Part shown: piece after piece, positions 35,907 to 54,011 of the stretch | Position numbering within the stretch: the stretch's first letter is position 1 | Layout of the letters: every line of letters starts with the position of its first letter | From: a virus | Reading direction: 5' to 3' (one strand) | Length of the DNA: 57,999 nucleotides | IMG/VR virus record: IMGVR_UViG_3300031962_000004 | Location: 1-57,999 of that record | Notes under the pieces: model-generated | What the model was told of the DNA's origin: nothing | Databases searched by the model: none | Seen by the model: only the letters and a program-made list of their open reading frames with translations | Program-made: the position numbers and the translations under genes

Positions 35907-35909
35907 ACA

Positions 35910-40200: not shown

Positions 40201-40496
40201 TCCTGATCTGAACCGAACATCGCCTTCACCAACTCTTCTTCGATCTGCCGGTCGCTGAACCCCTGCTCCTTCAACTTCGCCCGCATGTCGTCCAGATCGT
40301 CTTCGCTAGGCTCCTGTCCATACTCCCCGATAGCTTCGGGGCCGAGCGGTTTCTCGGGCATGGGAACGGCTTCAGGGATACGTAGCACCGCCTCCACACA
40401 CGCCGCGATGCGCTCGAACGCGGTCGCCATGCGGCGGACCTCGGACACTAGTTCGTCGCCTTGCTGAGCGGTCAGGAGTTTATCAAGGAGACTCAT
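40197..40496 (-). CDS. Hypothetical acidic protein, 99 aa
   Basis: Track ORF; ATGA overlap upstream. Confidence 0.6.
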   Translation of the reverse strand: MSLLDKLLTAQQGDELVSEVRRMATAFERIAACVEAVLRIPEAVPMPEKPLGPEAIGEYGQEPSEDDLDDMRAKLKEQGFSDRQIEEELVKAMFGSDQD

Positions 40497-41173
40497 TTCT
40501 TTAGAACGGTGACGCGACCAGGTAGTTCTTTCTCACTCGCAATGGCATCGTGAATCTCAGGGTCCATCGCGGGTGTCGCCCAGTCTTCCGCTTCCTGCCG
40601 GGCGATGCGCTGCGCTTGCTCTGGCGGGATGTTCAAGTCGTTCGATGCCGCATAGGAGATGGCGGGTCCTTTCTTAAGCCCCGCCGCTACGTCCACGGGC
40701 TTGTGGTCTTCCGCGAGTGCGGGTGTACGCGGAACGCGCCCACCCACGGGCGGAAGTTCCGGGTCCTTCACACTGATCTTCGACTTCACCCGCGTATCGA
40801 CGTACTGGCCCTCTACCCGATGGGTTTCCATCCGGCCGAGTCCGGTTTCTTCCCGCTCTACCTGTGGATCTTTCTCCCACCCGATGATGGGCGAGTCGTG
40901 CTCGAGTTCCACCGCCTCCTCGCGGACCTCCACGAACTCGCGGCCCTCGACCACGCAGCGTTCCAGGAACTTGTCGTTACGCACGGGGTCTCCAGGACCT
41001 TGGGACTCGTAGGGGATGACCTGAATGGTGACGGAGTAGCGAACCAATGGGTAGGCATACATTGCGCGCAGGTTCATGGCCTGCAAGATTCCCTGGTGCA
41101 CACGGTCCTCGATGATGGTGCGCAGTTCGTCGCCGTTTAGGCTGTGGTGTGCTTCCTGTCGTCGGTCTGGCAT
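40493..41173 (-). CDS. Hypothetical protein, 226 aa
   Basis: Track ORF. Confidence 0.6.
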   Translation of the reverse strand: MPDRRQEAHHSLNGDELRTIIEDRVHQGILQAMNLRAMYAYPLVRYSVTIQVIPYESQGPGDPVRNDKFLERCVVEGREFVEVREEAVELEHDSPIIGWEKDPQVEREETGLGRMETHRVEGQYVDTRVKSKISVKDPELPPVGGRVPRTPALAEDHKPVDVAAGLKKGPAISYAASNDLNIPPEQAQRIARQEAEDWATPAMDPEIHDAIASEKELPGRVTVLKK

Positions 41174-41174
41174 G

Positions 41175-41252
41175 TTACCTCTTTCTCTGATTCAACAGTA
41201 ACGCGATCAATGCGGCGAAGGCGCACAGCGCCTCCCAGTGGTCTACGGTCAT
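41175..41252 (-). CDS. Micro membrane peptide, 25 aa
   Basis: ATGA overlap with the upstream stop; MTVDHWEALCAFAALIALLLNQRKR. Confidence 0.3.
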   Translation of the reverse strand: MTVDHWEALCAFAALIALLLNQRKR

Positions 41253-41758
41253 ATTTTCTTGGCGATGAACACGATTCCGTAGTCGGTCGGATCAGGGCAG
41301 GTATCTAAGATGATCTCATAATCCATAAGATTGAGGACTTCACGAGATATTTCTCCCACCTCCGGCTCGTGCTTATGAGCCAAGTTGGGAGGCTGTCCTC
41401 CAGTAATGGCTTTGGCCCATCTGTGTTTTTCGGGAGCCAGGATAATCAGGTGTCCTCCGAACTGCAGAACGCTATCCCATTCCTTCAGAAGCTCCGGCCA
41501 CTCCCCGATATCGAAATCTTCAATCAGGTGGCTAGAGTAGACGAAAGTCAAACAGTTCCTTCTAAACCACCATAGCTTTCGTCCATCTCCTCTAAGGTGG
41601 ATCGGTCCAGGACCGATCAGTGGGCAGTACGGTTTCTGCAGGTCGATCTGGATAGCGTGTGGAACCACGGGATCGCCAGCGCTCCCGATGTCTACACCAG
41701 CCCCGGTACAGTAAGGCGCGGTCAGGTGGCGATACTTTGATGTCTCGCTAGTCGCCAT
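41249..41758 (-). CDS. Class I SAM-dependent methyltransferase
   Basis: GAGVDIGSAGDP (motif I-like); FVYSSHLIEDF; LQFGGHLIILAP. Confidence 0.7.
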   Translation of the reverse strand: MATSETSKYRHLTAPYCTGAGVDIGSAGDPVVPHAIQIDLQKPYCPLIGPGPIHLRGDGRKLWWFRRNCLTFVYSSHLIEDFDIGEWPELLKEWDSVLQFGGHLIILAPEKHRWAKAITGGQPPNLAHKHEPEVGEISREVLNLMDYEIILDTCPDPTDYGIVFIAKKI

Positions 41759-42503
41759 ACGTTTCCTTCAGCTCCCGCTGAATCCAGTCAGGTGTCGATT
41801 CGCTACCCATCCGGTAGGTGATCGCGAACTCTTCCGTGTGGCGTCCGTCCGAGTACACCGCTCCCGCGATCTCCCGGTCGAAGAATTCCTCGTGCGAATG
41901 CACCCCCACGCGTCCGATGTTACGTGCCCTCGACACCAACGGGTAGAGCGACTTCCATCCGTACTCGTGCATCGCCATTGCGAGCGACCAGTCCCAGCCC
42001 AACTGAGTCTTGAGCTGGCGGTTCCACTCTGGGCGCATCCGTTCCCACTGTGCGCGGCTAAAGCACCACGCCGATGTGTAGATGGACCGGCACTCGTGGA
42101 TCTCTCGGTAGTTCTCGTCGCGGGGGACCACCTTACGGTAGTGCGGGTCACCGAGAGAGCAGAAGGCGTAGTCCTCGGCGTCCCACATCCCATAAAACCA
42201 GTCGGCTAGTTCCAGTGCGTCTGGAGAAAGGATTACGTCGTCTTCAAGCGCGACGTTGAAATCTACATCGTTGGAGCGGTCAAACACCGCGTTGTAGCAC
42301 TTCGCGTTGTGGTGGTCGATCCCGTAGTGGTTTTGTAGGTACACTATCTCCCATGAGGGAGGCACCTTGATCTTGAGTGGACTCCCGCCGTCAACAGATA
42401 CCAGCACTGCATAGTTGTCGACACCACGGCAGTCGATCAAAGCATGGATGCACTGCTCTAGATACTCCGGTCGATTGTACGACAGTATAGTCACTGTGCG
42501 CAT
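41748..42503 (-). CDS. GT-A fold glycosyltransferase (GT2/GnT-I-like)
   Basis: ATG at 42503 after GAGAGG; VTILSYNRPEYLEQCIHAL; LEDDVILSPDA (DxD). Confidence 0.7.
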   Translation of the reverse strand: MRTVTILSYNRPEYLEQCIHALIDCRGVDNYAVLVSVDGGSPLKIKVPPSWEIVYLQNHYGIDHHNAKCYNAVFDRSNDVDFNVALEDDVILSPDALELADWFYGMWDAEDYAFCSLGDPHYRKVVPRDENYREIHECRSIYTSAWCFSRAQWERMRPEWNRQLKTQLGWDWSLAMAMHEYGWKSLYPLVSRARNIGRVGVHSHEEFFDREIAGAVYSDGRHTEEFAITYRMGSESTPDWIQRELKETYGD

Positions 42504-42561
42504 TGATCCATTGCCTCTCGCTTCCGCGCATACATCCGTCTCCAAATGCGGTTATGGCATT

Positions 42562-43260
42562 TCATGTCCAGCCCTTGGCTTCCTTTACTTTCTGCCAATG
42601 AGTTATATAACGCCTGTCTTCCGGGTTGCGCCAGATACCGCCGTTGTAGTGGACTACGGGAGCCTCGATGGGACCGTCCGCATCCTCGTATCCCCACATG
42701 GTCTGAAAGATCCGGCGCTCGGAGTCGATCACGGCGCCGGGCAACTGGCCTGTTAGAAAAGAGTTGATCCAGATGGGCTGATCGTTGATCTCCTGGATGA
42801 TCTCGCTCGCCTCGATCATTCTCTCGATCACGTCAATCAGATAGCCGACTTGGCCGAACCATGTTCCCGCGTTGATAAAGCGGTACGGTCCCTTCACCTT
42901 TGGGTATAGCATCTCGTACTCTGGATGCGGCCAGCAGTTCTTTTCCGCACTCAACACGAGGGAAGGGCACCCGAGCAACTCCCATCCTCCAACGATCTCG
43001 CCCTCTCCGCCCTGGAGAAAGGTATCGAATCCGTCCGACCATAGCGCGTGGGTGTAGGCTTGGGTTTCCTGGATGAGTTTCAGGTGCTCCAGGGCCGCGA
43101 CCATCTTACCCACTCGCATGTCGCCCGACGCTGGCCACACGCCGTTCAGTTCGGCGGCTTGGCAGAATCCCAGATCGACATTATTGAGACGGCAAGACTC
43201 GGTGAGGATCGCGGCAAACTCCGGCTTTTCGTAACATGCGGATAGAACGCAGATGTTCAT
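42562..43260 (-). CDS. Putative glycosyltransferase (nucleotide-diphospho-sugar transferase-like)
   Basis: ATG at 43260 after GGGGA; WSDGFDTFL; SAEKNCWP; RFINAGTWFG. Confidence 0.5.
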   Translation of the reverse strand: MNICVLSACYEKPEFAAILTESCRLNNVDLGFCQAAELNGVWPASGDMRVGKMVAALEHLKLIQETQAYTHALWSDGFDTFLQGGEGEIVGGWELLGCPSLVLSAEKNCWPHPEYEMLYPKVKGPYRFINAGTWFGQVGYLIDVIERMIEASEIIQEINDQPIWINSFLTGQLPGAVIDSERRIFQTMWGYEDADGPIEAPVVHYNGGIWRNPEDRRYITHWQKVKEAKGWT

Positions 43261-43385
43261 TGCGTCATCCCCACGCAAACTGCACCTTGGTGAGTTTGTC
43301 CAGATCAAAAATTCGGAGATCGTCATGGTAGCGTGGGTTGTACGCCGCTAACATGAGTGGCGTGAACCCGATTATCTTGAGGCGC

Positions 43386-44174
43386 TTAGACATCCTTCAC
43401 TGGCCTCCACTTTCTTGCGCGAGCCCCCTTGGCGGCGTGCTTCGCCCGCTCCTCTACGATCTTGGGGATAGTATCGGTCGCATACGCCTGCCAGAAATCC
43501 TCTTCCTGCTGCCGCCATAGCAGCGCCCTGTACGCTTTGGACACCCTTCGCATGGCTTCCGTCATGGCTCGCACGGTCTCGACCAAGCCCGCGAAGGAAC
43601 TGATCCGCAGGCGTGGCAAGAATGCAGGTGGGATCTCCACTCGGTTGATGACGCCCTTTCCCCACCGGACCTGAATGTGGACCGTGATCTCAGGCAGACC
43701 GCGGGACGGATCGCGGTTCGACCACCAGGAACGGAATAGCAACAGGCGCCGTCGCATCTCGGAACGCCGAGGTAGGATGTCGGACGCCATTTCCTTCCCC
43801 TCGCGGATATCGGATTCGAGCATCTCCATCCGCCGACACATCGTCGGCGAGGGAGTATAGTGGCCCGAAATCAGAAACCGGAGCGTGCGCCGAGTGATCC
43901 CCAAGAGTCCAGATAGGCGGTGAAGCGAGAGCCCCTGCATTTCCGAAAGGGCCTTAATCCTACCCGGTTGCCAGTCCTTAACGGCCTCGTGGTAGGCTTT
44001 AGAGCGCTGCTGACGCCATTCGTTCGGGTTCATGAGGACCTCAACGACGCGGTTTCTCTGCATCTGGCGCCACTGAAAACGGTAAGTTGAGGGTACATTC
44101 TTCCGTTTCCGGCGCTCTCCACCATCGTAGTATAACGGTCCCTTATTTCGATGTTGGTGCTTTGAAAGAGTCAT
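43386..44174 (-). CDS. Arg-rich protein with a helix-turn-helix segment
   Basis: LSLHRLSGLLGITRRTLRFLISG. Confidence 0.55.
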   Translation of the reverse strand: MTLSKHQHRNKGPLYYDGGERRKRKNVPSTYRFQWRQMQRNRVVEVLMNPNEWRQQRSKAYHEAVKDWQPGRIKALSEMQGLSLHRLSGLLGITRRTLRFLISGHYTPSPTMCRRMEMLESDIREGKEMASDILPRRSEMRRRLLLFRSWWSNRDPSRGLPEITVHIQVRWGKGVINRVEIPPAFLPRLRISSFAGLVETVRAMTEAMRRVSKAYRALLWRQQEEDFWQAYATDTIPKIVEERAKHAAKGARARKWRPVKDV

Positions 44175-45529
44175 TTATTTGCAACAACCTGCACGTTGGG
44201 AGCGGGTTTTGAGTAGTCAATTATCATGGCTGCGGCAATCGCGTCAATAATTGCACTGGCGGTCCACCCTTCCGTCTTTGTCTCCCGGTAGTAGGTTACA
44301 TGGGGTCCGTACCAGCGATCACGGTCGCGGGGGGTCCCCAAAATTTGCGTCTGTGGCATGAACTGGGATTTTACGTCCGGACCAAAGTCTCTGACCGAGT
44401 ACTTCCAATCAGAACGGCACGGCAGCAGTAGAAGGGTCGGAACCCCGAGAAGTGCGGCCAAGTGGAAGCCAGCCGTATCTACCGCCACCACCAGATCCAT
44501 GGATAAGATGTAGCTGGCCGTCTCGTGCCAAGTGGCTAGTTTTTCTTCTTCCTGGATCACTCGCTGCGGCACGCGGAATTTGTCGAACTTATGAAGTCCC
44601 TTATTCTGTGGGCACAGCCCGTAGACGGGTCCGTACTTCGCCAGTTCCTTGGCGACGACTCCCGCCGTGTGATCATCTAGCGATCGGATCTTGCGGACGC
44701 TACCGTTCTCCTCGGCTCGCCAGCAATAGCCGATCCGCGGCGGGTCATGATGAATTCTAGGGACTCGCTCGTGGCTCGGAAGAGTCTCAATGAAGGCGTC
44801 CCGCATCCCGTCAGGCGGAATGTCCGTCCACGACTTCATCTTAAATATGCCCGGGAGGCTCATGATCGAGATGCTATAGTCCCAGTCGGATGCCCGCACG
44901 GACTTCTTGAGTGGGATGATCTCGTTGACACCGAATCTCTTCCAGTCGCAGAAGTCGAGCAACTTATCCCACATCAGAATTCCGACGCGATCGGACATCT
45001 CGCGCACCTTGGGTATCCAACGGCTGAACAGGAAGGCGTCTCCGAACCCACCTTCGGGCACGATCAGTACGCGGGAATTCGGCTCTCCTCGCCACAGCTT
45101 CGTCATGGGCAAGGTTCCCCATGAAGCTGCGAAGCGGCCGGCCTCGAACGCTTCCCAGGAGTACTCGAACTGGCCGAGACGCATCAGTGAGTATGCGAAT
45201 CCAAGAAGAATCTGCTGCATCGAACCATGGGTTGTAGGGGTGGATTCCGCCACCCTGAGTGCCCGCTGAAAGATCGCAGGGACTTCTTGAAACTTTCCCT
45301 GATCGCTATATACCTGGGCGATGTTGTTCCAGACCTCCGCGCTTTTACCCTGCGTCAGCACCAAGCATTCGTGAAGCGTGTCCATCGCTCGTTCAAACTG
45401 ACAGCAACCGCGTTGCGCGGCGGATAGCACCAGAAGATTATCGATGGTGGGTTCCTTCTTAGCCTTCTTAGCTAGAAGCGGAAGTGCGCGGTGCGGGGCG
45501 CCGGCTTGCAGCATTTCAACGGCTGTCAT
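44171..45529 (-). CDS. TPR-repeat + GT9 (heptosyltransferase-like, GT-B) glycosyltransferase fusion
   Basis: N-terminal TPR-like helices (about 130 aa); RVLIVPEGGFGDAFLFSRWIP; DLVVAVDTAGFHLAALLGVPTLLLLP. Confidence 0.7.
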   Translation of the reverse strand: MTAVEMLQAGAPHRALPLLAKKAKKEPTIDNLLVLSAAQRGCCQFERAMDTLHECLVLTQGKSAEVWNNIAQVYSDQGKFQEVPAIFQRALRVAESTPTTHGSMQQILLGFAYSLMRLGQFEYSWEAFEAGRFAASWGTLPMTKLWRGEPNSRVLIVPEGGFGDAFLFSRWIPKVREMSDRVGILMWDKLLDFCDWKRFGVNEIIPLKKSVRASDWDYSISIMSLPGIFKMKSWTDIPPDGMRDAFIETLPSHERVPRIHHDPPRIGYCWRAEENGSVRKIRSLDDHTAGVVAKELAKYGPVYGLCPQNKGLHKFDKFRVPQRVIQEEEKLATWHETASYILSMDLVVAVDTAGFHLAALLGVPTLLLLPCRSDWKYSVRDFGPDVKSQFMPQTQILGTPRDRDRWYGPHVTYYRETKTEGWTASAIIDAIAAAMIIDYSKPAPNVQVVANK

Positions 45530-45678
45530 TTAAGTTTCTCCGCTTTGATCCCCGATTCAATCAGACGCTCGATGAGACGCGACAATACGAAACCGTCCCG
45601 ATCCGCAATCCGGCGCAACATTTTTAGGAGATTCTTTGAAACTTTTACGGATTCGCGTTCCACGGTTCTAGGATACAC
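45526..45678 (-). CDS. Ribbon-helix-helix (CopG/Arc-like) regulator heading the glycosyltransferase operon
   Basis: ESVKVSKNLLKMLRRIADRDGFVLSRLIERLIESGI; GTG at 45678 or leaderless GTG at 45663; ATGA overlap with the GT9 gene. Confidence 0.55.
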   Translation of the reverse strand: MYPRTVERESVKVSKNLLKMLRRIADRDGFVLSRLIERLIESGIKAEKLK

Positions 45679-45715
45679 GTCTCCACCACGGTAGTCAATA
45701 TTATTACTGGTGGAG
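45670..45715 (-). promoter_or_regulatory. Promoter TTGACT-N17-TATCCT bracketed by the 8-bp inverted repeat CTCCACCA/TGGTGGAG
   Basis: -35 at 45698-45693 and -10 at 45675-45670 on the minus strand; IR arms at 45681-45688 and 45708-45715. Confidence 0.4.
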
Positions 45716-45732
45716 TGAGGTGGCGAAACGGT

Positions 45733-46098
45733 TCATTCCTCTAGCAATTGGTAATTGATGATGGGAGATCCGCTGACCGCCTGCATGTTCATCATGAGGG
45801 CGTAAATGGCGTTCGCTCCAGATCCACGGTACGTATCCGCGGCGGAGGCGCCTACGAGCGTGGCACCCTTCTGCACAATGCCGCCCACCGTGGTCCCGGT
45901 GCTTCCATCTCCGATTCTGACGCTCAGGCCAGCAGAGGTCTCCGGGTCCACCTGGAACTGAACCTCGCGCCACGAACCGGATAGGCTAAGATCTATGCCG
46001 AGCTGCGTCTTTACGAGGTCGATAAAGCGGGCCAAGGTCGTCGAGATTGTGATCGAACCGGACATGTACCCCTTGCGGTTAGCGGTGTTCTGCGGCAT
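45733..46098 (-). CDS. Hypothetical protein, 121 aa
   Basis: Track ORF; GAAGGGA 6 nt upstream. Confidence 0.6.
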   Translation of the reverse strand: MPQNTANRKGYMSGSITISTTLARFIDLVKTQLGIDLSLSGSWREVQFQVDPETSAGLSVRIGDGSTGTTVGGIVQKGATLVGASAADTYRGSGANAIYALMMNMQAVSGSPIINYQLLEE

Positions 46099-46128
46099 CG
46101 GATATCCCTTCGGGTGTATTATATACCC
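46099..46128. promoter_or_regulatory. Compact bidirectional AT-rich promoter with overlapping -10 boxes on both strands
   Basis: TATTAT at 46117-46122 (plus) and TATAAT at 46123-46118 (minus) inside a 30-bp divergent gap. Confidence 0.35.
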
Positions 46129-48015
46129 ATGCTAGAACTAAGGGCCTACGGATGGTTGATACTGTTGTCTTTTTTTTGTGCTAGCGCGTGTGCGCAGCCT
46201 ACTCCGGGGGCCTTGACCGTCAACCAGACCACCGTGAATGGCGGGATCACGGGGGACTGCCTCAAGGTCAAGGCGGGCCAGATTTTGGATCAGGGAGCAT
46301 GCGGCGGTGGCGGGGCCGTCTCCCTCACAGGCGGCACGGGTATCAGCGTAAGCCCGAACCCGATCACCGGCACGGGTGTCATCACCAACACCGCCCCAGG
46401 CGCTTCCCCGGCTGGCTCGGCTGTCACGGATGCACAGTGTTGGGCGAGCGCTTCGACGTTCGGGGTGTGCGTAAATCCGATTATTGGTGGTTTGAATATC
46501 ACGGGCCTGCCCATCAGCACCGGCGTCTCTGGCTTGGGAACTGGCATCGCTACCGCTCTCGGTATCAACGTCGGCAGCGCGGGAGCGCCGGTGCTTTTCA
46601 ATGGCGCCGGCGGTACGCCGTCATCGCTGACGCTCACCAATGCTCTTGGTCTGCTGGCGGCGGGTTTGCCAAATGCGGGGGTTTTCACCGGGGATGCCAC
46701 AACCACCTTCCCAGCTCTTACCATCGGTAACAACGCGATCACGGCGATCAAGATGGTGAATGCCGGTGTTTTCACGGGCGACGCGACCAGTACCTTTCCC
46801 GCGATCACGATTGGAGCCGGAGCCATCACCGCCGCCAAGATGGTCAACAGTGGCGTCTTTACGGGAGATGTCACGACTACTTTTCCAGCTATCACCGTGG
46901 CGCGAGTTAATGGCATCACGTACTCTGCCACGGCGGCGGCGCACTCGGTCGAAGTCATCACCACGGCTAATACCACAGCCACGGCTAAAGTGATTCCGGA
47001 CTGCACCGACTCGGCCGGAAATCACATCAACTATACGCAGTCAACCGATGCGTTTTCCTGCGGCACGTCATCGAGCGGCAGTGGAACGGTCACCTCTGTC
47101 GGCTTCACGGGTGGTTTGATTTCGGTGGGGACTCCGACGACGACTCCTGCCTTCACCGTTGCGGGAACTTCCGGCGGAATTCCTTACTTCTCCGGCGCGG
47201 CAACCTGGGCATCTTCTGGAGCCGGAGTTCAGAACGCCATGATGGCCTGGGGCGGGGCGGGGAACGCGCCGACTTCCCCGTTGGCCCTTCTCGTTACTAA
47301 CCAGAATAGCGCCACGGAATTATGGACCCTTTACAATTCGACCCCGACGACTGGTGTGACGGAATTTAAAATCCGTGTTGGGGCAGCCACGACTAACCCG
47401 CCTTTCCACCTGTATGCGAACAATGGAACTACTGAAATTGCCCGCGTTCAGACCAATGGGGTGCTTCGAGGCTCGAATCAGATCATTTCTCATAACTCCG
47501 ACTTGAGCGGTACCGAGAATATAGCTATGAACTCCGTCTCTGGCTCCGGCGGTGAAGGCTTCAGGGCTTCTAGCGTAGGCGGCGTTCGATTCAGCTCCGA
47601 TACTACCTGGTTCGGCAGTGCGGACGGGATGGTTGATCGGGATGCCGCTGGAATTGTCGGCGTCACCAACGGTACACAGGGCACCACCGCCGCGAATTAT
47701 CGCGCGATCGCGGCAAGTGCCCATTACGTAAAAGGGACAACCTTCACAGCTTCCGGCTGCTCGAACGGCACGCTGGTTGGCGGGGCCACGGCGGGTAAGT
47801 TCACGGTGGGCGCTAACTCCTGCACGGTTGTCGTCACCATGGGCAATAGCGCCACAGCGCCGAATGGGTGGTTTTGCAGCCCGCAGGATCAGACCACCGC
47901 AGAACTCACAGCGGGAGTTTATCAATCTGCATCAACCACAACCACGGCGACTTTCACGGTTCCAGTGACGGCGGGAGCTACCGACGTGATCGGCTTTGCC
48001 TGTATTGGGTATTAA
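46114..48015 (+). CDS. Fibre-like repeat protein with an N-terminal signal peptide
   Basis: Track ORF; alternative ATG at 46129; WLILLSFFCASACA/QP; Gly/Thr/Ser-rich; three 29-aa repeats. Confidence 0.6.
   Translation: MYYIPMLELRAYGWLILLSFFCASACAQPTPGALTVNQTTVNGGITGDCLKVKAGQILDQGACGGGGAVSLTGGTGISVSPNPITGTGVITNTAPGASPAGSAVTDAQCWASASTFGVCVNPIIGGLNITGLPISTGVSGLGTGIATALGINVGSAGAPVLFNGAGGTPSSLTLTNALGLLAAGLPNAGVFTGDATTTFPALTIGNNAITAIKMVNAGVFTGDATSTFPAITIGAGAITAAKMVNSGVFTGDVTTTFPAITVARVNGITYSATAAAHSVEVITTANTTATAKVIPDCTDSAGNHINYTQSTDAFSCGTSSSGSGTVTSVGFTGGLISVGTPTTTPAFTVAGTSGGIPYFSGAATWASSGAGVQNAMMAWGGAGNAPTSPLALLVTNQNSATELWTLYNSTPTTGVTEFKIRVGAATTNPPFHLYANNGTTEIARVQTNGVLRGSNQIISHNSDLSGTENIAMNSVSGSGGEGFRASSVGGVRFSSDTTWFGSADGMVDRDAAGIVGVTNGTQGTTAANYRAIAASAHYVKGTTFTASGCSNGTLVGGATAGKFTVGANSCTVVVTMGNSATAPNGWFCSPQDQTTAELTAGVYQSASTTTTATFTVPVTAGATDVIGFACIGY
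46678..46920 (+). repeat. Tandem 87-bp (29-aa) coding repeats, GVFTGD(A/V)T(T/S)TFPA(L/I)T(I/V), 2.8 copies, diverged at synonymous sites
   Basis: Repeat units start at 46678, 46765 and 46852. Confidence 0.8.
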
Positions 48016-48027
48016 GAAACGATTTCC

Positions 48028-49677
48028 ATGAAAACTTTTCTCTCTTTTTTCTTGTTAGCCTTCCCGATCTTCTCGCAAACCCTTGGCGGTTATATCGTCG
48101 TCAACACCGCCTGCGGCGTCGTGGGCGACAAAATCACTGATGACACTGCTGCGCTACAAGCCTGTATCAACGCCGCACCGGATTACGCGGAACTCGTTTT
48201 CCCTGCTGGTCTTCAAATGAAGATCACCGCCGCACTGAACCTTCACGGACGTTATGGCATCCGCTTCCTGGGAGAAACTAGCATCTTTGCGGGTCCGAGC
48301 GCTAATACAGCCGCACCGACCTTTTATTGGTATGGACCAGACGGTGGAACGATGCTCGACATCAACCGCAGCCAGAACTTCCTCATCGAAGGACTGACTT
48401 TCATGAGTTCTGACAACTTCAAGACCGGCACGGGCGGTGCATCCATCGGAATTTATATAACCCAGACGCTCAGTACGGGACCGATTACGACGGATGGGAT
48501 TCTGGAGCGCGTTTCAATATATGGCACAGAGCAGAATCCTGGCTTCCGGGCTATTGTCTTCTCGGAAGGCAGCAATCAGAATGTCGAGAATATGACCGTT
48601 AGAAACTCAGTCGTCTCCTGCTCCTACGGAACTGGTTTTCAGACAGCGTTAGGGCAGGGCATCGTTCTCGCAGGCACGCAAAACGCGCAAGGACATACGT
48701 ACGAGAGGAATACGATCACCAACTGTGCCACCGGCATCTACATCGCAGGCCCAGGCGGAAGCCCATTGAGTATCCTGCGCAACAACTTCAACAGCAACGG
48801 CACGCACATCTATTCCGCGACGACGTATGCGCCTGTCGTGATCGAAGGGTCCGATTCCGAAAACTGCTCTTATTTCTTTCAGGGAACTGGACAGTTGCAA
48901 TTTTCCAATAACCGCGTGGCGGCCTGTTCGCCGCCCTCGGGGAAAGGAGTGTTCGCCTTCGGAGCGACAGGGCAGGTGGTGTTCACGAACAACAAAATCG
49001 AAGGCAATGTCATGCCATTCTCCGCGGATTCCTATGTGTTCATCGTGGACTTCGCCAACAGCTACGGTGCAAATCCTGCGACCATGGCGGCGTCCCGAGT
49101 TGCCATCAAAAGCGGTTCGATCAATACGCTCTCTGCGATGGGATTTCTGTCCACGGGTGGCTCGCAATTAGGGCGATTCGGCTCTGGCAGCGGCCAGGGT
49201 CCAGTCGCCGGTCTTGGACTTTTGGATTATTCAAAGGAATTGAACCGCTGGGCCTCAAGCCAGAACGGATCGAATTGGGTTCCGTTAGCAACTGACCCCT
49301 CACCCGGAATTACTTTGACCGCACAGGGGGCGATGCCCTCCTGCGGAGCCTGGCTAGATCTCCAAAGCAATGGACATCAGGAAGTGTCGTCAGCCTCTAG
49401 GCCCTTCACCCCTGCGGATGTCGGAGGGGTATTGCATCTCAGTTCTGGCGTCAACTTTGTTCCAGCGGATTACATAGTTACGCGGTATTTCAACAGCGGG
49501 ACCGTCTCTCTGATCCAGGACCCAAGTACCAACTTTCAAGCTAACGGCTTCAGCGGATCGTTCACGCTAAATCGAGGCAGGATCATTCGCGTGGAAGGAA
49601 CTTCAGGGGTTGCCGATACGCTGATGATCTGCCAGAAAACCATGGCGGACGTTTATGCTTGGGTGGCGCTGCAATGA
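48028..49677 (+). CDS. Right-handed beta-helix (pectate-lyase-fold) protein with a signal peptide; depolymerase/tailspike-like
   Basis: MKTFLSFFLLAFPIFS/QT; GDKITDDTAALQACINAA...LVFPAG. Confidence 0.65.
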   Translation: MKTFLSFFLLAFPIFSQTLGGYIVVNTACGVVGDKITDDTAALQACINAAPDYAELVFPAGLQMKITAALNLHGRYGIRFLGETSIFAGPSANTAAPTFYWYGPDGGTMLDINRSQNFLIEGLTFMSSDNFKTGTGGASIGIYITQTLSTGPITTDGILERVSIYGTEQNPGFRAIVFSEGSNQNVENMTVRNSVVSCSYGTGFQTALGQGIVLAGTQNAQGHTYERNTITNCATGIYIAGPGGSPLSILRNNFNSNGTHIYSATTYAPVVIEGSDSENCSYFFQGTGQLQFSNNRVAACSPPSGKGVFAFGATGQVVFTNNKIEGNVMPFSADSYVFIVDFANSYGANPATMAASRVAIKSGSINTLSAMGFLSTGGSQLGRFGSGSGQGPVAGLGLLDYSKELNRWASSQNGSNWVPLATDPSPGITLTAQGAMPSCGAWLDLQSNGHQEVSSASRPFTPADVGGVLHLSSGVNFVPADYIVTRYFNSGTVSLIQDPSTNFQANGFSGSFTLNRGRIIRVEGTSGVADTLMICQKTMADVYAWVALQ

Positions 49678-49982
49678 GATTCACCATATTCTTTCTCGCC
49701 CTCGCGCTCCAGGCGCAGGGCCTACCTTTTTGCGCGGGCGGTTCACATCCGTCAAATGAGCCCTGCCGTCCAGTATCAGAAGTTCTTAACCCGGAGGCAA
49801 GATGCGAAGCCACCGACTGGAAAGTCCGCGCGGAATGGCTGGAAGCAAAAGCTGCGCAACTTGAGAGTAAGCTAAACGCTGTGGTGCAAATGTACAACGC
49901 GGATATGGCGTTGACCGGACTCGCGGCCAAGGAGCCGCCTAAGCCTGCGCCCGCCAAATCGCCCGTGCAAGGAGAGAAGTGA
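49674..49982 (+). CDS. Small exported protein, 102 aa, 4 Cys plus a coiled coil
   Basis: ATGA start at 49674; MRFTIFFLALALQA/QG. Confidence 0.55.
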   Translation: MRFTIFFLALALQAQGLPFCAGGSHPSNEPCRPVSEVLNPEARCEATDWKVRAEWLEAKAAQLESKLNAVVQMYNADMALTGLAAKEPPKPAPAKSPVQGEK

Positions 49983-49983
49983 T

Positions 49984-50232
49984 GTGAAACTCTACTGTCC
50001 CAAGTGCGGCACGGTACTCGAACGGGACATGGTGATCACAGAGAAGGAGATGAACGTGTGGCGTCTGTGGGCGAAAGGAATGAGCGTGAAGCAGATCGGC
50101 GATGAACTGGGAATCCCGGATAAAACGGTGGGCTCGCGCAAGTATTCCCTGAGCCAAAAGCTCGGCATTATCGGCCAAGCTACCCCGGCCTCACGAATCA
50201 CGCGCATCTGGATCGAGCGGGGCATGCAATGA
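49984..50232 (+). CDS. LuxR/GerE-type HTH regulator with an N-terminal zinc ribbon, 82 aa
   Basis: CPKCG; EKEMNVWRLWAKGMSVKQIGDELGIPDKTVGSRKYSLSQKLG. Confidence 0.7.
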   Translation: MKLYCPKCGTVLERDMVITEKEMNVWRLWAKGMSVKQIGDELGIPDKTVGSRKYSLSQKLGIIGQATPASRITRIWIERGMQ

Positions 50233-50531
50233 CTGCGCTCGCGCATCTGTGCCTGTGGTGCTCGCCCGTGAGCGTTCACGCGCATCCCCTCGGGCAGCAG
50301 GAACTAATCGTCGTACACCAGCGCGACAAGGCGGCGCATGTGCTCAAGGCCCCCACGTGCCTCGGGAATCCGATCTCGTTCAGCGGCGGCGGCGAGTGGA
50401 GCTTCACTTGCCAGACTTTCATTCCGCCCAAGCAGCAGGCGAGACCCGGAATACAGGCGCTAGCCGCTCCGGCAATCAAGCGGCTTCAGTCTGTTGAGGT
50501 CGACGGCAAGATAAGAAAGGTGAAGCGATGA
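50229..50531 (+). CDS. Small protein, 100 aa, with a signal-peptide-like N-terminus
   Basis: ATGA start; MTALAHLCLWCSPVSVHA/HP. Confidence 0.5.
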   Translation: MTALAHLCLWCSPVSVHAHPLGQQELIVVHQRDKAAHVLKAPTCLGNPISFSGGGEWSFTCQTFIPPKQQARPGIQALAAPAIKRLQSVEVDGKIRKVKR

Positions 50532-51529
50532 GCACTTTCTACGTTTCCCCGTCCGGCTCCGATACCGCTAACGGCAGTGCTGCAACGCCATGGCAAACCG
50601 TCTCCCACGCCTTGGACACAGTTGCCCCTAGCGGCGATACGATCATGGTGAACGATGGGTTGTACACCCCATGGTTCAACGATCAGACGCGCTTGTGGCT
50701 CAATATAACGAAGTCTGTTACCTTGCGCAGCGTGAACCCGAAGGGCGCGGTACTCGACGGCGCGCTCCAATGCCACTCCCCGATAAATCTCAACACGGGA
50801 TCGGCCAACGTCCTGATTCAGGACTTCCTCATCAAGCGAGGCGCTCATGGTGGAATCTGGGCGAACAGTCTAGCCGCGAAAGGCGTAACTGTGCGCGGCT
50901 GTGAGATCGCCTATATCAGCAACATCCCGGACGGAACCCAAATCGGTAACTGTGGAATCTATATGGATGGCGCGGCAGTCATCAACGTGGACGCCTCCTA
51001 TCTGCACGATATCGGGCGCTCGACCGCAATCGATCCCGGTAACGCCTTCGACCACGCAATCTACTCCCACGGCGCGGCGCTCATTACGAACTGCACGTTC
51101 GCCGCGCTGCTGCAGGGGTGGGCAATCCAGACCTCGCAAGGCTTCTCGGGGCGCATCCTGAACAATGCTTTCAACGGACCCGTGGAGTACGCGGGCTCGG
51201 GCGGGCTCAAGAATGGGCAGATCATGTTCTGGCAAGCGGCTAGCGGTGGGATCGAAGTCAGTTCTAATCTCTTCAATAATCCGCGCGGCTATGCGCTCGA
51301 AACTTTCGCCTTTAGCTTTCCGGTCGGCACTTTCAAGAGCGGCAACAATCAGGTAAGCGGCGGCTTGCCGCTCGGTGGGCCTGCTGGTCAAGTTTCAAGC
51401 GGAGCGACCGGGCCGGTGGGGCCGCAAACAACCCCAACGCCTACGCCACCTGCGCCATCTGGCGTGACGGTCACAGTGAACGGGCAGGCAGTCAAGACAG
51501 CACTTCCAGTGACGATTACGATTCAATGA
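50528..51529 (+). CDS. Right-handed parallel beta-helix repeat protein (polysaccharide lyase/hydrolase-like) with a Pro/Thr linker and a small C-terminal domain
   Basis: FYVSPSGSDTANGSAATPWQTVSHALDTVAPSGDTIMVNDGLY; TTPTPTPPAPS. Confidence 0.65.
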   Translation: MSTFYVSPSGSDTANGSAATPWQTVSHALDTVAPSGDTIMVNDGLYTPWFNDQTRLWLNITKSVTLRSVNPKGAVLDGALQCHSPINLNTGSANVLIQDFLIKRGAHGGIWANSLAAKGVTVRGCEIAYISNIPDGTQIGNCGIYMDGAAVINVDASYLHDIGRSTAIDPGNAFDHAIYSHGAALITNCTFAALLQGWAIQTSQGFSGRILNNAFNGPVEYAGSGGLKNGQIMFWQAASGGIEVSSNLFNNPRGYALETFAFSFPVGTFKSGNNQVSGGLPLGGPAGQVSSGATGPVGPQTTPTPTPPAPSGVTVTVNGQAVKTALPVTITIQ

Positions 51530-51557: not shown

Positions 51558-51776
51558 ATGTTGCACGACGATGTGGCCAAGATGATGCGGCGCGTGAGCC
51601 CTGCGGAGGTCCAAGCCTACCTGAACCTGATCGGAGCGCATCAGTCGGTGATCATCGAGAACGCCGCCAAAATGTGCCGCTGGCGGAAGTCCTTCGCTCA
51701 CCACGGGCTCAAGACCTTGTACCTGGGGACTGAGCGGGGCTTCAAGCGCTGGCTTCGGGAGCACGCGCTACAATAA
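51558..51776 (+). CDS. Hypothetical protein, 72 aa
   Basis: Track ORF. Confidence 0.5.
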   Translation: MLHDDVAKMMRRVSPAEVQAYLNLIGAHQSVIIENAAKMCRWRKSFAHHGLKTLYLGTERGFKRWLREHALQ

Positions 51777-51781
51777 CGCCA

Positions 51782-52105
51782 ATGAGTGACGCGTACATTC
51801 CGGCGCCGGCCCCTGTTGCCACGCCGCTGCCACCGACCACGACGCATCAAGAGGATCTGGTTACCGCTGGACAGCGGAAAGTCAACCTGATATGGGAGTA
51901 TACGCAGGCATTTATCGCCGTCTCTGTAGTCCTGGCCAACCTCTCAGTGGGCGTGCATAACGGGTTAGTGAGTCCGCCGCGCGAGGTCCCGCCAATGCTC
52001 ACCAACAGCCTCTTTCTCGTAATCGGTTTTTACTTTTCCAGGACTAATCATTCAGCGATCGGTGGCGTGGGACGCAAACCCAACCCGCCTTATGAGGGGA
52101 GATGA
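51782..52105 (+). CDS. Membrane protein, 2 TM (holin candidate)
   Basis: AFIAVSVVLANLSVGV and LTNSLFLVIGFYF hydrophobic segments. Confidence 0.5.
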   Translation: MSDAYIPAPAPVATPLPPTTTHQEDLVTAGQRKVNLIWEYTQAFIAVSVVLANLSVGVHNGLVSPPREVPPMLTNSLFLVIGFYFSRTNHSAIGGVGRKPNPPYEGR

Positions 52106-52106
52106 C

Positions 52107-52310
52107 ATGCCTTACGCGCTAATTGACATCGTGGTGGTGCTTGCGATTGCCGGCCTGATCTTGTGGGCCATTAGCCAGATTCCGATGGATGCGACGATCG
52201 CCAGAATCATTCGCGTCATCATTATTGTCGTCGTGTGCATCTGGCTGCTGTATTTCCTAGTGGCGCTCATTCCAGGTGGTGGCTTCTTGCCAGCTCCGGT
52301 GCGGCGATGA
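52107..52310 (+). CDS. Membrane protein, 67 aa, 2 TM (holin/antiholin candidate)
   Basis: ATG at 52107 after GAGGGGAGA; IDIVVVLAIAGLILWAI and IIIVVVCIWLLYFLVALI. Confidence 0.5.
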   Translation: MPYALIDIVVVLAIAGLILWAISQIPMDATIARIIRVIIIVVVCIWLLYFLVALIPGGGFLPAPVRR

Positions 52311-52660
52311 ACCTGCCTCTTGGCTTCGGCGACGTTGAATGGGACGATTGGATACGCGGCATCGTCGCGGCCTTCATCGGGGGCGGAGCGAGCGCATTCT
52401 CGGCTGGTGTGGCAGATCTGCTAAACCATCCCGGCGTGTCGATCTGGAACCGCGAGTTCTGGTCGGTGGTCTCGACCACGTTCGTGATCGCGGGCCTTAT
52501 CGCGCTGTTTGCGTTCCTCAGAACCAAGCCGATCCCCGATAAGAAGGTGGTGACCACGACCGTGCAGAAGACGCAGGTGGATGCGCCCAATGTGCCGGAC
52601 AAGGTTGTGACCACGGTTCAAGAGACGCACACCGAGCCGATAGCGAAAGAGGAGAAGTGA
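52307..52660 (+). CDS. Membrane protein, 117 aa
   Basis: ATGA start at 52307; IVAAFIGGGASAFSAGVA and VVSTTFVIAGLIALFAFL. Confidence 0.5.
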   Translation: MNLPLGFGDVEWDDWIRGIVAAFIGGGASAFSAGVADLLNHPGVSIWNREFWSVVSTTFVIAGLIALFAFLRTKPIPDKKVVTTTVQKTQVDAPNVPDKVVTTVQETHTEPIAKEEK

Positions 52661-52818
52661 TGGCGCTGATCGATTTGAAAGAGGCTGTGGATGAGGCAGC
52701 CGCGAAGCTCCCGCCCGTCCTGCAACCACTCCTGACTTCCTTCGCGGATGAACTCGTGGCGAAGCTAAAGGATGCGCTGATCGGGCGCGAGATCACGTTC
52801 ACGATCACGATCAAATGA
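52660..52818 (+). CDS. Micro-protein, 52 aa
   Basis: TGATG and ATGA overlaps; below the track cutoff. Confidence 0.4.
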   Translation: MALIDLKEAVDEAAAKLPPVLQPLLTSFADELVAKLKDALIGREITFTITIK

Positions 52819-53270
52819 CTCCTGTACCACAAACAAATTACGGCAGACATCAGGGCAATTGCTTGACCGCTTGCATCGCTTCGGTACTAGACGTTCCAAT
52901 TTCTTCCGTGCCAGAGTTTTGTGTCGATGGAGAGTGGTTCGCGCGCTTGGATGCGTTCTGCCGCGAGAACGGATTCTTCCTACTGTACTGGCGGCACTCG
53001 GAGAATATTCCGCTGATCTGCCTCAACGCCTACGTGATCCTCTTACTCGCGCTGGAAGGAGAGAGTGATCTTCATGCGGTCGTCGCGCGTACCACGATAG
53101 AGTCCAAGGAGCCGATCACGGATGCCGAGATTGAGCGCGGAGCGGCCCTCGCTGAGGACGCAGGCGGAATCCGATGGGGTTGGAAGTCGGAGTTGGTTCA
53201 CGACCCTAATGAACGCGGCTATCCTCCGGTCGAGGGAGTGCGCGGCTATATCATGATTGGCAAGCAATGA
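52815..53270 (+). CDS. Papain-like (C39-like) cysteine peptidase candidate
   Basis: QGNCLTACIASVL (Cys nucleophile context) and downstream LHAVV. Confidence 0.45.
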   Translation: MTPVPQTNYGRHQGNCLTACIASVLDVPISSVPEFCVDGEWFARLDAFCRENGFFLLYWRHSENIPLICLNAYVILLLALEGESDLHAVVARTTIESKEPITDAEIERGAALAEDAGGIRWGWKSELVHDPNERGYPPVEGVRGYIMIGKQ

Positions 53271-53413
53271 CCACCGACGAACTCACCCCCGCCGAGATCG
53301 CCTGGCTCCAGGAGTGGCGCAGGCAGCGCGCGCTGTGGGACAAGATCGACCTGGACAATCCGCGCACCGACCCGCCGCCGTGCCCCGCTGCGCTGGTGCT
53401 GCCGCCGAAATAG
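53267..53413 (+). CDS. Micro-protein, 48 aa
   Basis: ATGA start; TAG at 53411-53413. Confidence 0.35.
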   Translation: MTTDELTPAEIAWLQEWRRQRALWDKIDLDNPRTDPPPCPAALVLPPK

Positions 53414-53498
53414 TGTACACTCTTCCTAACGGCGTGGCTCTAACGAGCCGCAATTCAAGCCAGAAATTGATGCAACCAAGAATGGCAAAGGGAGATCA

Positions 53499-54011
53499 AT
53501 GAAAGGTGGGCGGCTGGCGACGGCCGCTTTCCTTTTGTGCGTGCCGTTGCTCGGCCAGGGGACTTACCGCGAGCCCGCCCCGCGCTCCACCGCGCGCCTC
53601 GCCACGCCCGCGCCAGAGCCCTCGTATTTCGTGACGGCAGGGGGCGGAGACCAAGCTCCCGGACGCGGAGCGGCATTCACTTATTGGTCCGTTTCCCGTT
53701 ATTTGGGCCAGCAGAACTGGGCGACGATCATCACCGAGTATTCGATCAGCGGCAATCAGGTGGTGACCTGCCCGCTGGCCGGCATCAGCCACGTGGCGTT
53801 AAGCGCGGGGTCATTGAGCGCGGGCCTGGTGGGTGCCGGCGGCGCGTGCTCTGGTAGCGTGAGTGGTTCTTCCGGCGCGGCGAGTGCGCAGGGCTTCGCG
53901 GTGGTGCACCTCGGCGGAGCATGGTCGCTGATCGCTACGGCGCGAAAAACCTTCACAAACGAAGGCACCAATGCAGTGAGGGTGACCCTCGGCGTGGGGT
54001 ACGCCAAATAA
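53499..54011 (+). CDS. Exported Gly/Ala/Ser-rich protein, 170 aa (moron-like)
   Basis: AAGGGAG SD; MKGGRLATAAFLLCVPLLGQG signal-like N-terminus; flanked by non-coding DNA. Confidence 0.6.
   Translation: MKGGRLATAAFLLCVPLLGQGTYREPAPRSTARLATPAPEPSYFVTAGGGDQAPGRGAAFTYWSVSRYLGQQNWATIITEYSISGNQVVTCPLAGISHVALSAGSLSAGLVGAGGACSGSVSGSSGAASAQGFAVVHLGGAWSLIATARKTFTNEGTNAVRVTLGVGYAK

Follow-up and report, generated by a model that had tools for sequence, protein, structure and literature searches.

An uncultured soil phage (58 kb, 58.6% G+C, possibly with an acidobacterial host) encodes, at what its sequence indicates is most likely the far end of its block of late genes (tail, fibre and lysis), a fibre-like protein, a 549-residue pectate-lyase-fold β-helix protein and a 102-residue partner that probably fold outside the cytoplasm, as their N-termini and cysteines suggest. 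We tentatively read these products, at somewhat short of even probability, as proteins that are made late, exported and directed at host exopolysaccharide, without dependence on the virion chassis. To our knowledge, extracytoplasmic folding has never been shown for fibre- or depolymerase-type proteins of a tailed phage. The features of the window (the whole stretch of DNA analysed, 57 999 nucleotides) that are discussed below are as follows, with predicted signal-peptidase cleavage sites marked here and throughout by a slash.

46114..48015, + strand: fibre-like protein, predicted to be exported; 633 aa from GTG 46114 or 628 aa from ATG 46129
48028..49677, + strand: 549-aa right-handed β-helix protein, predicted to be exported; PF12708
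49674..49982, + strand: small partner protein, predicted to be exported; 102 aa (107 aa if the start is 49659)
49984..50232, + strand: stand-alone GerE/LuxR-type HTH protein; 82 aa, PF00196
50229..50531, + strand: 100-aa ORF with an ambiguous N-terminus and four Cys residues
50528..51529, + strand: second β-helix protein; 333 aa, no signal peptide
27409..28854, + strand: signal-bearing, Cys-paired, fibre-like protein in the main virion operon; MKRTLLLLLLANPMFARA/IY from an internal ATG
34660..46098, no strand assigned: ~11.4-kb stretch between the He_PIG tail protein and the fibre (tblastn synteny map, gene tables, Pfam)
51558..54011, + strand: continuation of the rightward unit, with small membrane proteins, a 151-aa Cys-rich protein and a 170-aa signal-bearing protein; same order in L009/L010

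The six ORFs of the cassette that the first-pass annotation had placed at 46114–51529 were all recovered in a gene-call check with the lengths and motifs given there; ATG 46129 is the start used in the database copy of the fibre (P0007). At the junctions between the genes of 49674–51529 there is either an ATGA overlap or a gap of 1 nt, the partner gene being ATGA-coupled to the β-helix gene, and no terminator-like site was found after 49649 in the scanned stretch (to 52300). The six ORFs do stop at 51529, but the rightward unit runs on into membrane-protein and lysis-like genes, so that the proposed end of the cassette is not the end of the unit. The genes of 51558–54011 have homologues in the same order in L009 and L010 and include, at 53499–54011, that of the conserved 170-aa protein with the signal MKGGRLATAAFLLCVPLLG/QG; the membrane proteins of this region are holin-like by topology alone. 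A glycosyltransferase operon on the opposite strand indeed lies between the cassette and the virion operon. The cassette's own promoter, reported as seen, was not recovered: a consensus scan gave no + strand promoter-like site upstream. The divergent 121-aa gene is separated from the cassette by 15–30 bp, and a promoter is postulated because the arrangement is divergent.

The view of an independent second cassette did not survive comparison with related phages. The same fibre and β-helix genes directly follow the He_PIG tail protein in L009 and L010, and in the nearest relative they lie 12 nt after the last tail gene. Segment 34660–46098, which comprises five + strand genes, a PD-(D/E)XK nuclease gene, the leftward glycosyltransferase operon and the 121-aa gene, has no counterpart at that place in the nearest relative, and the distance between cassette and tail genes in the window is thus accounted for by ~11.4 kb absent there from the relative; this extra DNA would have displaced the distal end of the late block from the tail genes. 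The fibre, β-helix and partner are also the only proteins that the window has in common with the unrelated phages L022, L048 and L049 (stretches of 8–22 kb compared), where the copies are located between the portal and the scaffold/coat genes. The fibre-like protein at 27409–28854 has no homologue in L009/L010.

Signal peptides were called with our own hydropathy/AXA heuristic, which looks for a basic n-region, an uncharged h-region of 7–15 residues and small residues at −3/−1. This tripartite form is present in the fibre (MLELRAYGWLILLSFFCASACA/QP, site ACA/QP), the 549-aa β-helix protein (MKTFLSFFLLAFPIFS/QT) and the 102-aa protein (MRFTIFFLALALQA/QG), with the n-region of the fibre (MLELRAYG; one Arg and one Glu) only weakly basic. 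The N-terminus of the 100-aa protein (MTALAHLCLWCSPVSVHA/HP) lacks a basic n-region, and its h-region is weak; inspection of the N-termini of the GerE/HTH and 333-aa proteins revealed no signal peptide, nor does the latter have an in-frame extension upstream. The statement that most proteins of the cassette carry export-type N-termini is therefore correct for three of the six, with one ambiguous and two lacking a signal. No cassette N-terminus contains the RR of the Tat motif (S/T-R-R-x-F-L-K). Signals of the same tripartite form also occur outside the cassette, in the proteins encoded at 27409–28854 (main virion operon) and 53499–54011.

Among the 1955 homologues of the fibre, about half of the best 120 have signal peptides, and in a set of 126 proteins consisting of fibre matches and a few β-helix matches, 70 are signal-like, 46 of them with a small residue followed by Gln at the site. 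Most of the top β-helix relatives are likewise signal-bearing, and the signal-less fibre homologues have classical tail-fibre N-termini where the signal would be. In homologues from other phages the form of the signals is kept, mostly with Gln at +1, while their sequences differ even at 62% overall identity; because the signals recur across homologues and are conserved in form only, we regard them as beyond chance. The unusual N-terminal anchors that had been offered as an alternative are unlikely as worded, since these N-termini vary in sequence and look cleavable. The mature fibre contains ten Cys residues in five near-neighbour pairs (49–63, 109–119, 297–316, 549–570 and 588–630) and the mature 549-aa protein contains eight in four pairs (29–46, 198–233, 280–300 and 439–535), of which Cys29, Cys46, Cys198, Cys233 and Cys439 are invariant among the aligned relatives. 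Signal-bearing fibre homologues have a mean Cys content of 1.57% versus 0.29% in signal-less ones (about five-fold), and the Cys count is even in 28 of 35 signal-bearing homologues (p = 2.5e-4). Recurrence of the signals in form, together with the enrichment and pairing of cysteines, argues for the real export that the first-pass annotation had proposed.

The 549-aa protein matches PF12708 (Pectate_lyase_3/RHGA-epimerase-like) at 36.4 bits (cut-off 27). An AF2 monomer model displays a β-helix core at residues 20–345 (pLDDT 70–93), which among PDB folds resembles RbmB most (9ozl; E 3.5e-6, TMt 0.57), then AlgE4 and tailspikes. The β-helix motif CGVVGDKITDDT starts at residue 29, ~12 residues past the predicted cut, and neither the alignment nor the AF2 model contains an N-terminal particle-binding or adaptor domain ahead of the β-helix. 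A C-terminal extension of ~110 aa is found, among the relatives aligned, in phage copies only (L009 and L049) and is missing from the cellular copy; it could be a docking domain. A homologue with 45% identity (P0002), also signal-bearing, is encoded by the last gene of a GT4/GT2/carbamoyltransferase/epimerase EPS operon. The polysaccharide-degrading role suggested earlier is thus favoured by the PF12708 match, the EPS-operon relative and RbmB as the best fold match.

Behind its signal peptide, the fibre has an N-terminal part that varies, then three repeats of 29 aa (residues 186–272) and a conserved C-terminal β-sandwich that ends in ...FACIGY. It matched no Pfam or PHROG family, and the Pfam search located no S74 domain in the fibre itself; some of its relatives have Peptidase_S74, collagen or Mtd_N domains. 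The AF2 model is confident for the N-terminal helix (residues 3–21) and residues ~530–628 only, and the best fold match of the C-terminal domain, a weak one, is the C-terminus of a cyanophage tailspike (E 0.12). The repeats are 70–90% identical to those of classical tail fibres. Alignment with L009 begins at residue 99, the conserved part is the C-terminal 130 aa, and one phage has this domain in several of its proteins. The protein does not follow the classical tail-fibre pattern of a conserved N-terminal attachment domain and a variable distal part, as it is the mature N-terminus that varies. In the 102-aa partner, the motif C.GG..PS.EPC is accompanied by a coiled-coil-like segment and a tail rich in Pro and Lys; family searches gave no match. 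Its homologues are encoded directly downstream of the fibre or β-helix gene in L022 (41% identity), L009 and L048, an order thus found in four phages, and lie among head genes in L048 and L022. Assignment of this protein as a spanin was rejected, as no lipobox partner was seen and the L048 and L022 copies are among head, not lysis, genes.

In the reading that we tentatively favour, the fibre-like protein, the pectate-lyase-fold enzyme and the small coiled-coil partner would form a conserved triad of Sec/signal-peptidase-I substrates. Synthesized late in infection, they would be passed into the periplasm of the diderm host cell and acquire disulfide bonds as they fold there. The β-helix protein would be an exopolysaccharide depolymerase from the same lineage as the enzymes that close cellular EPS operons, acting like WceF or RbmB. 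As periplasmic, envelope-bound or lysis-released proteins, the triad would cut or bind the host exopolysaccharide, thereby releasing progeny from the matrix and stripping or masking receptor on both the dying cell and adjacent ones. Export with cleavage, the substrate and the free state of the proteins are inferred from sequence. Several observations count against free action: the tailspike-like position in the nearest relative would fit virion parts equally well, the C-terminal extension of the phage β-helix copies could serve for docking, and the C-terminal fibre domain recurs as a common docking domain would.

The main rival, which we consider somewhat unlikely, is that the fibre and β-helix proteins are exported and then join the virion as true receptor-binding proteins. 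Folding and oxidation would take place in the periplasm, and the proteins would attach to particles already filled with DNA but lacking fibres, either once the holin opens the inner membrane or after lysis; the small partner would be a periplasmic assembly chaperone that replaces the tail-fibre assembly protein. The tailspike position right after the tail genes in L009/L010, the 70–90% identity of the repeats to those of classical tail fibres and the tailspike-like fold match of the fibre C-terminus all speak for it, as does the small gene directly 3′ of the fibre gene in the usual place of a fibre chaperone; the phage-specific β-helix extension and the conserved fibre C-terminal domain could be the docking modules. 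Tailspikes of P22 are added last, and their addition is possible in vitro. Set against this, the modules move between phages with no other detectable common proteins in the compared stretches and sit among head genes there, the β-helix protein has no N-terminal particle-binding domain and the tail operon already encodes signal-less fibre candidates (a 220-aa protein with minor-tail matches and the 712-aa He_PIG protein). We also know of no tailed phage that assembles by export followed by docking. It is unlikely, though conceivable, that host-recognition proteins travel via Sec, are oxidized in the periplasm with the help of the partner and meet the cytoplasm-built particle at lysis; if so, they would take a route from Sec to particle without known precedent among tailed phages.

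It is quite improbable that the proteins are conventional tail fibres and tailspikes that stay in the cytoplasm for assembly, with the N-terminal helix serving as an oligomerization or attachment element or being removed by a phage protease. In all studied tailed phages known to us, tails are assembled in the cytoplasm. The signal calls are heuristic, the n-region of the fibre is weakly basic and signal-like capsid N-termini have been read as prohead-protease substrates (Matrishin et al., 2023; PMC10367356). However, N-termini that keep their physico-chemical character while their sequence changes are the signature of signals and not of a docking helix, Gln at +1 and small residues at −3/−1 recur, Cys content and parity split the signal-bearing from the signal-less homologues and the cellular EPS-operon homologue has the same N-terminal form. 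A lysogenic-conversion (moron) cassette, expressed in lysogens from its own promoter under the GerE regulator and remodelling the host surface or matrix, appears very improbable. The divergent arrangement that needs a separate promoter, the HTH gene within the operon and a serine recombinase gene at 14224–14871 would suit it, and tail-fibre regions are where exported moron products, for example Lom and Bor of lambda, are encoded. Nevertheless, the consensus scan found no promoter-like site, the cassette runs on without a break into late and lysis-like genes and is co-linear with tail genes in the relative, and the regulator is absent from the compared stretches of that relative. Searches for prophage relatives in Terriglobia genomes gave none for a conserved virion protein (401 genomes) or the C-terminal half of the fibre (301 genomes), and the former result leaves the lysogeny that the first-pass annotation had entertained unsupported.

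The closest parallels to an exported enzyme acting on matrix are WceF (Pantoea stewartii, stewartan EPS cluster) and RbmB (Vibrio cholerae, VPS matrix lyase), exported right-handed parallel β-helices with the export signal directly ahead of the catalytic fold; wceF closes its EPS gene cluster (PMC7949094), as the P0002 gene does. Both are cellular, whereas the phage enzyme is phage-borne with ~110 additional C-terminal residues; WceF has a Tat signal and a tailspike-typical N-terminal domain, in contrast to the Sec-type signal without twin arginine found here, and RbmB is only 12–14% identical in sequence. Tailspike depolymerases (P22, Sf6, HK620, Dettilon and CBA120) share the fold/PF12708 type and the post-tail position seen in the nearest relative, but the phage enzyme has no particle-binding domain and has a cleavable-looking signal and conserved paired cysteines. 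The MAT (mosaic adhesive trimer) fibres of Bdellovibrio bacteriovorus also combine a signal peptide with a long mosaic fibre of phage-tail-fibre-like modules, and after export they are presented outside the cytoplasm (Caulton et al., 2024; PMC10769870); they are cellular, with a conserved 130-aa N-terminal domain and variable C-terminal tips, the reverse of the variable N-terminal and conserved C-terminal parts of the phage fibre. The 'Q-rule' genes of Porphyromonas gingivalis phages encode signal peptides that expose Gln at +1 and were read as host Sec use to modify the envelope (Matrishin et al., 2023; PMC10367356). Those five genes are unassigned in function, with no tail fibre or depolymerase named among them, and the host belongs to Bacteroidota. 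T5 Llp and lambda Lom and Bor are exported proteins encoded in or beside the fibre module that act on the envelope of the infected cell, for example by receptor masking that protects progeny. They are small lipoproteins or outer-membrane barrels, whereas the exported products here would be a fibre and a β-helix enzyme. More speculatively, because the divergent TPR–GT9 glycosyltransferase island adjoins the cassette, it may glycosylate the Ser/Thr-rich proteins before export, as the Aah/TibC heptosyltransferases do with autotransporter adhesins.

Three further genes of the same operon, encoding the GerE regulator, the 100-aa protein and the 333-aa β-helix protein that has no signal, would be variable accessories. 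The 82-aa protein matches GerE (PF00196) at 41.2 bits (cut-off 23.5) over residues 17–62, has one N-terminal CPKC and lacks a signal peptide as well as any receiver or ligand domain. Its similarity to NarL/FixJ-type regulators is confined to their DNA-binding ends, and its NCBIfam matches, far under the cut-offs, are to the last 50–60 residues of response regulators only. A full LuxR-type quorum or two-component regulator was rejected, as the protein has 82 aa in all and neither an autoinducer-binding nor a receiver domain. It has no homologue in the L009/L010 stretches compared and is considered accessory, outside the conserved unit, because it lies in a variable sub-block missing from the relative; the 100-aa ORF has no family match and no homologue in L009/L010. 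In the 333-aa protein the helix leads into a Pro/Thr linker and then a small C-terminal domain. Its own DUF1565 and Pel9A scores are below the cut-offs (17.0 versus 20.3 and 14.1 versus 25.2 bits), and PF22842 is listed for it in the precomputed Pfam annotation. It matches the N-terminus of PelN (1.8e-7) and the GH120 xylosidase 3vst (9e-5). Its sole close homologue, P0128 (63% identity), passes PF22842 at 27.9 bits (cut-off 25.2) and is encoded among small accessory genes.

The window (57,999 bp) spans its entire record. Its first 127 bases (1–127) are repeated exactly at 57873–57999, and from this terminal repeat we take the window to be a closed, complete phage genome of ~57.9 kb (about 57,872 bp). 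An endolysin-like ORF that leaves the 3' end resumes at position 2, and the G+C content lies between 54 and 61% along the length. All of the ORFs and motifs quoted in the first-pass annotation were found. The gene layout is as follows.

Encoded in the window: large terminase, P22-type portal and major head protein
Reaching to 39436: tail and virion proteins
Encoded in the window: PD-(D/E)XK nuclease
Leftward operon: glycosyltransferases, a methyltransferase-like gene, an HTH protein and a TPR protein
From 46114, + strand: long rightward unit

The cassette (46114–51529) opens this rightward unit with genes for a fibre-like protein, a 549-aa β-helix protein and a 102-aa partner (together the triad), followed by an 82-aa regulator, a 100-aa protein and a 333-aa β-helix protein. 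The pectate-lyase-type β-helix of the 549-aa protein and the LuxR-type nature of the regulator were both confirmed, by PF12708 (36.4 bits against a cut-off of 27) and GerE (41.2 bits against 23.5), respectively. The 333-aa protein, a putative β-helix, itself scores below threshold, but a homologue at 63% identity passes a Pel9A-like β-helix family. Profile searches gave no family assignment for the fibre-like protein. Between 49674 and 51529 each gene is coupled to the next, either through an ATGA overlap or with a single nucleotide in between, and the operon does not end at 51529 but runs on into membrane-protein and lysis-like genes. The cassette had also been credited with its own promoter; nothing promoter-like was detected upstream, a sequence scan giving no sigma-70-like site on the + strand, and a promoter is only implied, by a divergent layout in which 15–30 bp separate the cassette from the divergent gene. 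DNA-level tandem repeats are absent from the cassette, and the three 29-aa repeats of the fibre are seen solely at the protein level.

The nearest related phage (L009/L010; 59 kb) has head and tail proteins that are 27–58% identical to those of the window. Its genes run from a homologue of the 438-aa protein through a 1151-aa protein and an 841-aa He_PIG protein to the fibre homologue, which starts 12 nt past the He_PIG gene and carries the signal MRRLILLLLLCGVGTARLAA/QV (the slash marks the predicted end of the signal). Next come a β-helix homologue (signal ...LLAFLLAAVALHA/QV), a small protein with a signal and a coiled coil, two further signal-bearing proteins and then homologues of window genes 51782, 52235, 52657, 53499, 55144 and 56065 with their order kept. 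This co-linearity argues that the cassette is the normal distal end of the late region. Window segment 34660–46098 has no counterpart at the corresponding place in L009/L010, and the cassette is thus set apart from the tail genes by DNA that is missing from the relative at this place, the glycosylation island included. The remoteness from the tail genes that the first-pass annotation stressed is true of the window, but in the relative the fibre gene directly follows the tail genes, so that the cassette is no separate set. The GerE, 100-aa, 333-aa and 72-aa genes have no counterpart in the L009/L010 stretches compared, and more distant relatives (L043–L047), found via a conserved 255-aa gene, show no other similarity to the cassette.

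Export-type N-termini had been attributed to most of the cassette proteins. With signal peptides called by our own heuristic, these N-termini are canonical in three of the six, whereas the 100-aa protein is ambiguous and the regulator and the 333-aa β-helix have no signal; nor are signal-bearing genes confined to the cassette, as two more lie outside it, at 27409–28854 (in the virion operon) and 53499–54011. The homologues that were inspected carry an n/h/c signal in every case except P0009 (an N-terminally short fibre fragment) and P0004; in P0022 the signal sits behind a long 5' extension. The signals are conserved in their form but not in their sequence: P0008 and the fibre share 62% overall identity, yet the former begins MKKLILLLLLFAACSFA/QTS and the latter MLELRAYGWLILLSFFCASACA/QPT. 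By the same heuristic 70 of 126 proteins examined (fibre matches and a few β-helix matches) are signal-like, and 46 of those 70 have a site with a small residue followed by Gln. Signals are also present in a majority of the top representatives of the β-helix family, the helix beginning directly behind them. Fibre homologues without a signal start with classical tail-fibre N-termini (e.g. MAQSGYTPILIY... or MTVNYTTNLALGQP...), so that in this family the signal takes the place of the tail-attachment domain.

The mature fibre contains ten cysteines (49–63, 109–119, 297–316, 549–570 and 588–630) and the 549-aa β-helix eight (29–46, 198–233, 280–300 and 439–535), five of which are invariant across seven homologues. 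Signal-bearing fibre homologues (n = 36) average 1.57% Cys, with an even count in 28 of the 35 that have any Cys (binomial p = 2.5e-4), whereas signal-less homologues (n = 36) average 0.29% with unbiased parity. Cysteine content, pairing and parity of this kind are expected of proteins that fold oxidatively outside the cytoplasm. Three independent lines argue that the cassette N-termini are real signals, and from them we infer export itself. The nearest published statement that we found concerns Porphyromonas phages, described as encoding proteins of unknown function with Q-rule signal peptides (PMC10367356).

The 549-aa protein is modelled by AF2 as a confident right-handed β-helix over residues 20–345, with the last 200 residues modelled poorly. 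Its best match among solved structures is RbmB (E = 3.5e-6; TM 0.57 on target), the matrix-polysaccharide lyase of Vibrio cholerae, followed by the adhesin PfbA, the tailspike of Dettilon, the alginate epimerase AlgE4 and the tailspike of Sf6. Equally good matches come from predicted viral structures with a pectate-lyase or tail-fibre annotation. The top-scoring homologue by sequence (P0002; 45% identity, with its own signal peptide) is the last gene in an operon that also encodes glycosyltransferases of families GT4 and GT2 as well as a carbamoyltransferase and an epimerase, on a contig of 60% G+C whose carbamoyltransferase is 68% identical to one from a Terriglobia genome. P0002 thereby resembles WceF, a β-helix gene that closes the EPS operon with the same arrangement in the stewartan cluster (PMC7949094). 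Further close homologues belong to phages. One, P0005, has a 712-aa signal-bearing protein on one side and the scaffold/coat genes on the other; another, P0003 (encoded by L049), adjoins a P22-type stabilisation protein. Among the copies compared, a 110-aa C-terminal extension occurs only in three phage ones (the window, L009 and L049). A docking domain shared by this extension and the fibre C-terminus was considered and rejected, BLASTP giving no similarity between them. The AF2 model of the fibre (24 sequences) has a mean pLDDT of 50.8 and no PDB match at E <= 0.001, and a tblastn search for cultured relatives found neither fibre nor β-helix among 50,697 phage records. The GerE protein, a bare DNA-binding domain in a variable sub-block, gave only generic response-regulator matches among the phage records.

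Homologues of the 102-aa protein lie directly downstream of a fibre or β-helix gene in L022, L009 and L048, that of L022 being 41% identical and having the motif C.GG..PS.EPC in common. A spanin role for this protein was rejected, as its gene position argues against it. In L022, L048 and L049, otherwise unrelated phages compared as partial contigs, the fibre, β-helix and partner are, within those stretches, the sole proteins detectably similar to those of the window. L048 (stretches 1546–8641 and 11120–12373), of P22-coat type, has five consecutive signal-bearing ORFs upstream of its scaffold/coat genes, preceded by an ORF with a membrane-anchor-like N-terminus; the run includes a fibre C-terminal domain, a β-helix and the small partner, and a further signal-bearing ORF immediately follows the coat gene. 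In L022 a run of signal-bearing ORFs stands behind the portal gene. Such sharing between dissimilar phages indicates that the triad travels as a whole between virion chassis, signal included. Classical tail fibres follow the opposite pattern: their N-terminal anchor stays with the chassis while the distal part is exchanged.

We commit to a triad that is truly exported and folded in the periplasm, as its signals and cysteines lead us to expect, and to the β-helix as an EPS depolymerase. That none of the triad proteins leaves the cytoplasm seems improbable to us, given the same features. Where the exported proteins would act is a matter on which the evidence is divided. Our tentative preference, held at somewhat short of an even chance, is that they would act free or at the host envelope, independently of the virion. 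Four features favour this: the modules do not depend on the chassis, the β-helix has no N-terminal anchor, the unit sits among head genes in other phages, and the tail operon of this phage includes fibre candidates that lack a signal. The main competitor, export followed by joining to the virion, is rather unlikely but draws on the tailspike position in L009/L010, on repeats heavily exchanged with true tail fibres and on the phage-specific C-terminal regions. A lysogenic-conversion cassette, for which nothing speaks beyond the need for a promoter, is very improbable.

The usual view is that the depolymerases and tail fibres of phages are made in the cytoplasm and carried on the virion. A widespread phage-borne set with host-style export signals and disulfides could instead represent secreted phage enzymes as a class, which would remodel the matrix of the host from within the periplasm or once lysis has occurred; or it could reflect an assembly route in which receptor-binding proteins pass through two compartments. 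Either would alter the annotation of such genes, which are now labelled 'tail fibre' and used for host-range prediction, and would bear on how soil-phage infection in EPS-rich hosts is understood. The kinship of the β-helix to an enzyme closing a cellular EPS operon offers a concrete lead to its substrate and exemplifies exchange between phage genomes and the polysaccharide clusters of hosts. Four points are new here: the explanation of the cassette position by insertion, the link of the β-helix with RbmB as well as with an EPS operon, a small conserved partner that accompanies the fibre and β-helix, and the finding that homologues of one fibre differ in Cys content and parity according to whether they bear a signal.

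An acidobacterial host is a weak lead, suggested by the one genome-collection match of the β-helix (an Acidobacteriaceae MAG, 30% identity). Against 401 genomes of the class of that MAG (Terriglobia), the β-helix gave only five weak matches and the conserved virion protein none; the fibre C-terminal half had no match in 301 Terriglobia genomes. In 400 kb of one Terriglobia genome (G266; L023–L042), a crude signal-peptide prediction gives Gln as the commonest +1 residue (23 of 136); judged by eye, about 25 of the signals are credible, and at least 15 of these end in ...A/Q. The Q-rule has been reported as Bacteroidetes-specific, and a text search of that paper turned up no reference to Acidobacteria (PMC5837995); on the strength of this single genome, the rule may perhaps hold in Acidobacteriota too.

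Several neighbouring genes also deserve record. The operon of the TPR-GT9 glycosyltransferase (44171–46098) diverges from the fibre gene (46114) across the same 15–30 bp spacer, and the putatively exported fibre, which is Ser/Thr/Gly-rich (15% Thr, 14.5% Gly), may be a substrate of this enzyme. A TibC/Aah-like nature of TPR-GT9 was considered and dropped, a PDB sequence search giving TPR matches alone. Within the main virion operon, 27346–28854 encodes a 481-aa fibre-like protein (from an internal ATG at 27409) with a signal peptide, ten paired cysteines and the motif SADWTTFNAK, and with no homologue in the L009/L010 stretches compared. A conserved 170-aa signal-bearing protein (53499–54011), downstream of membrane-protein genes, has no family match and shows an alternating hydrophobic pattern reminiscent of small outer-membrane β-barrels such as Lom and OmpX. 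The 151-aa protein at 52815–53270 contains five cysteines and the motif GNCLTACIAS; its match to phrog_5845, a family of unknown function, is at 1.2e-12, and it could be an enzyme of lysis or processing that resembles cysteine peptidases. In L050 (site 2711–3103), the one close homologue found for the 333-aa β-helix lies among small accessory genes, two genes from one with a Tlde1 (L,D-transpeptidase-like effector) domain.
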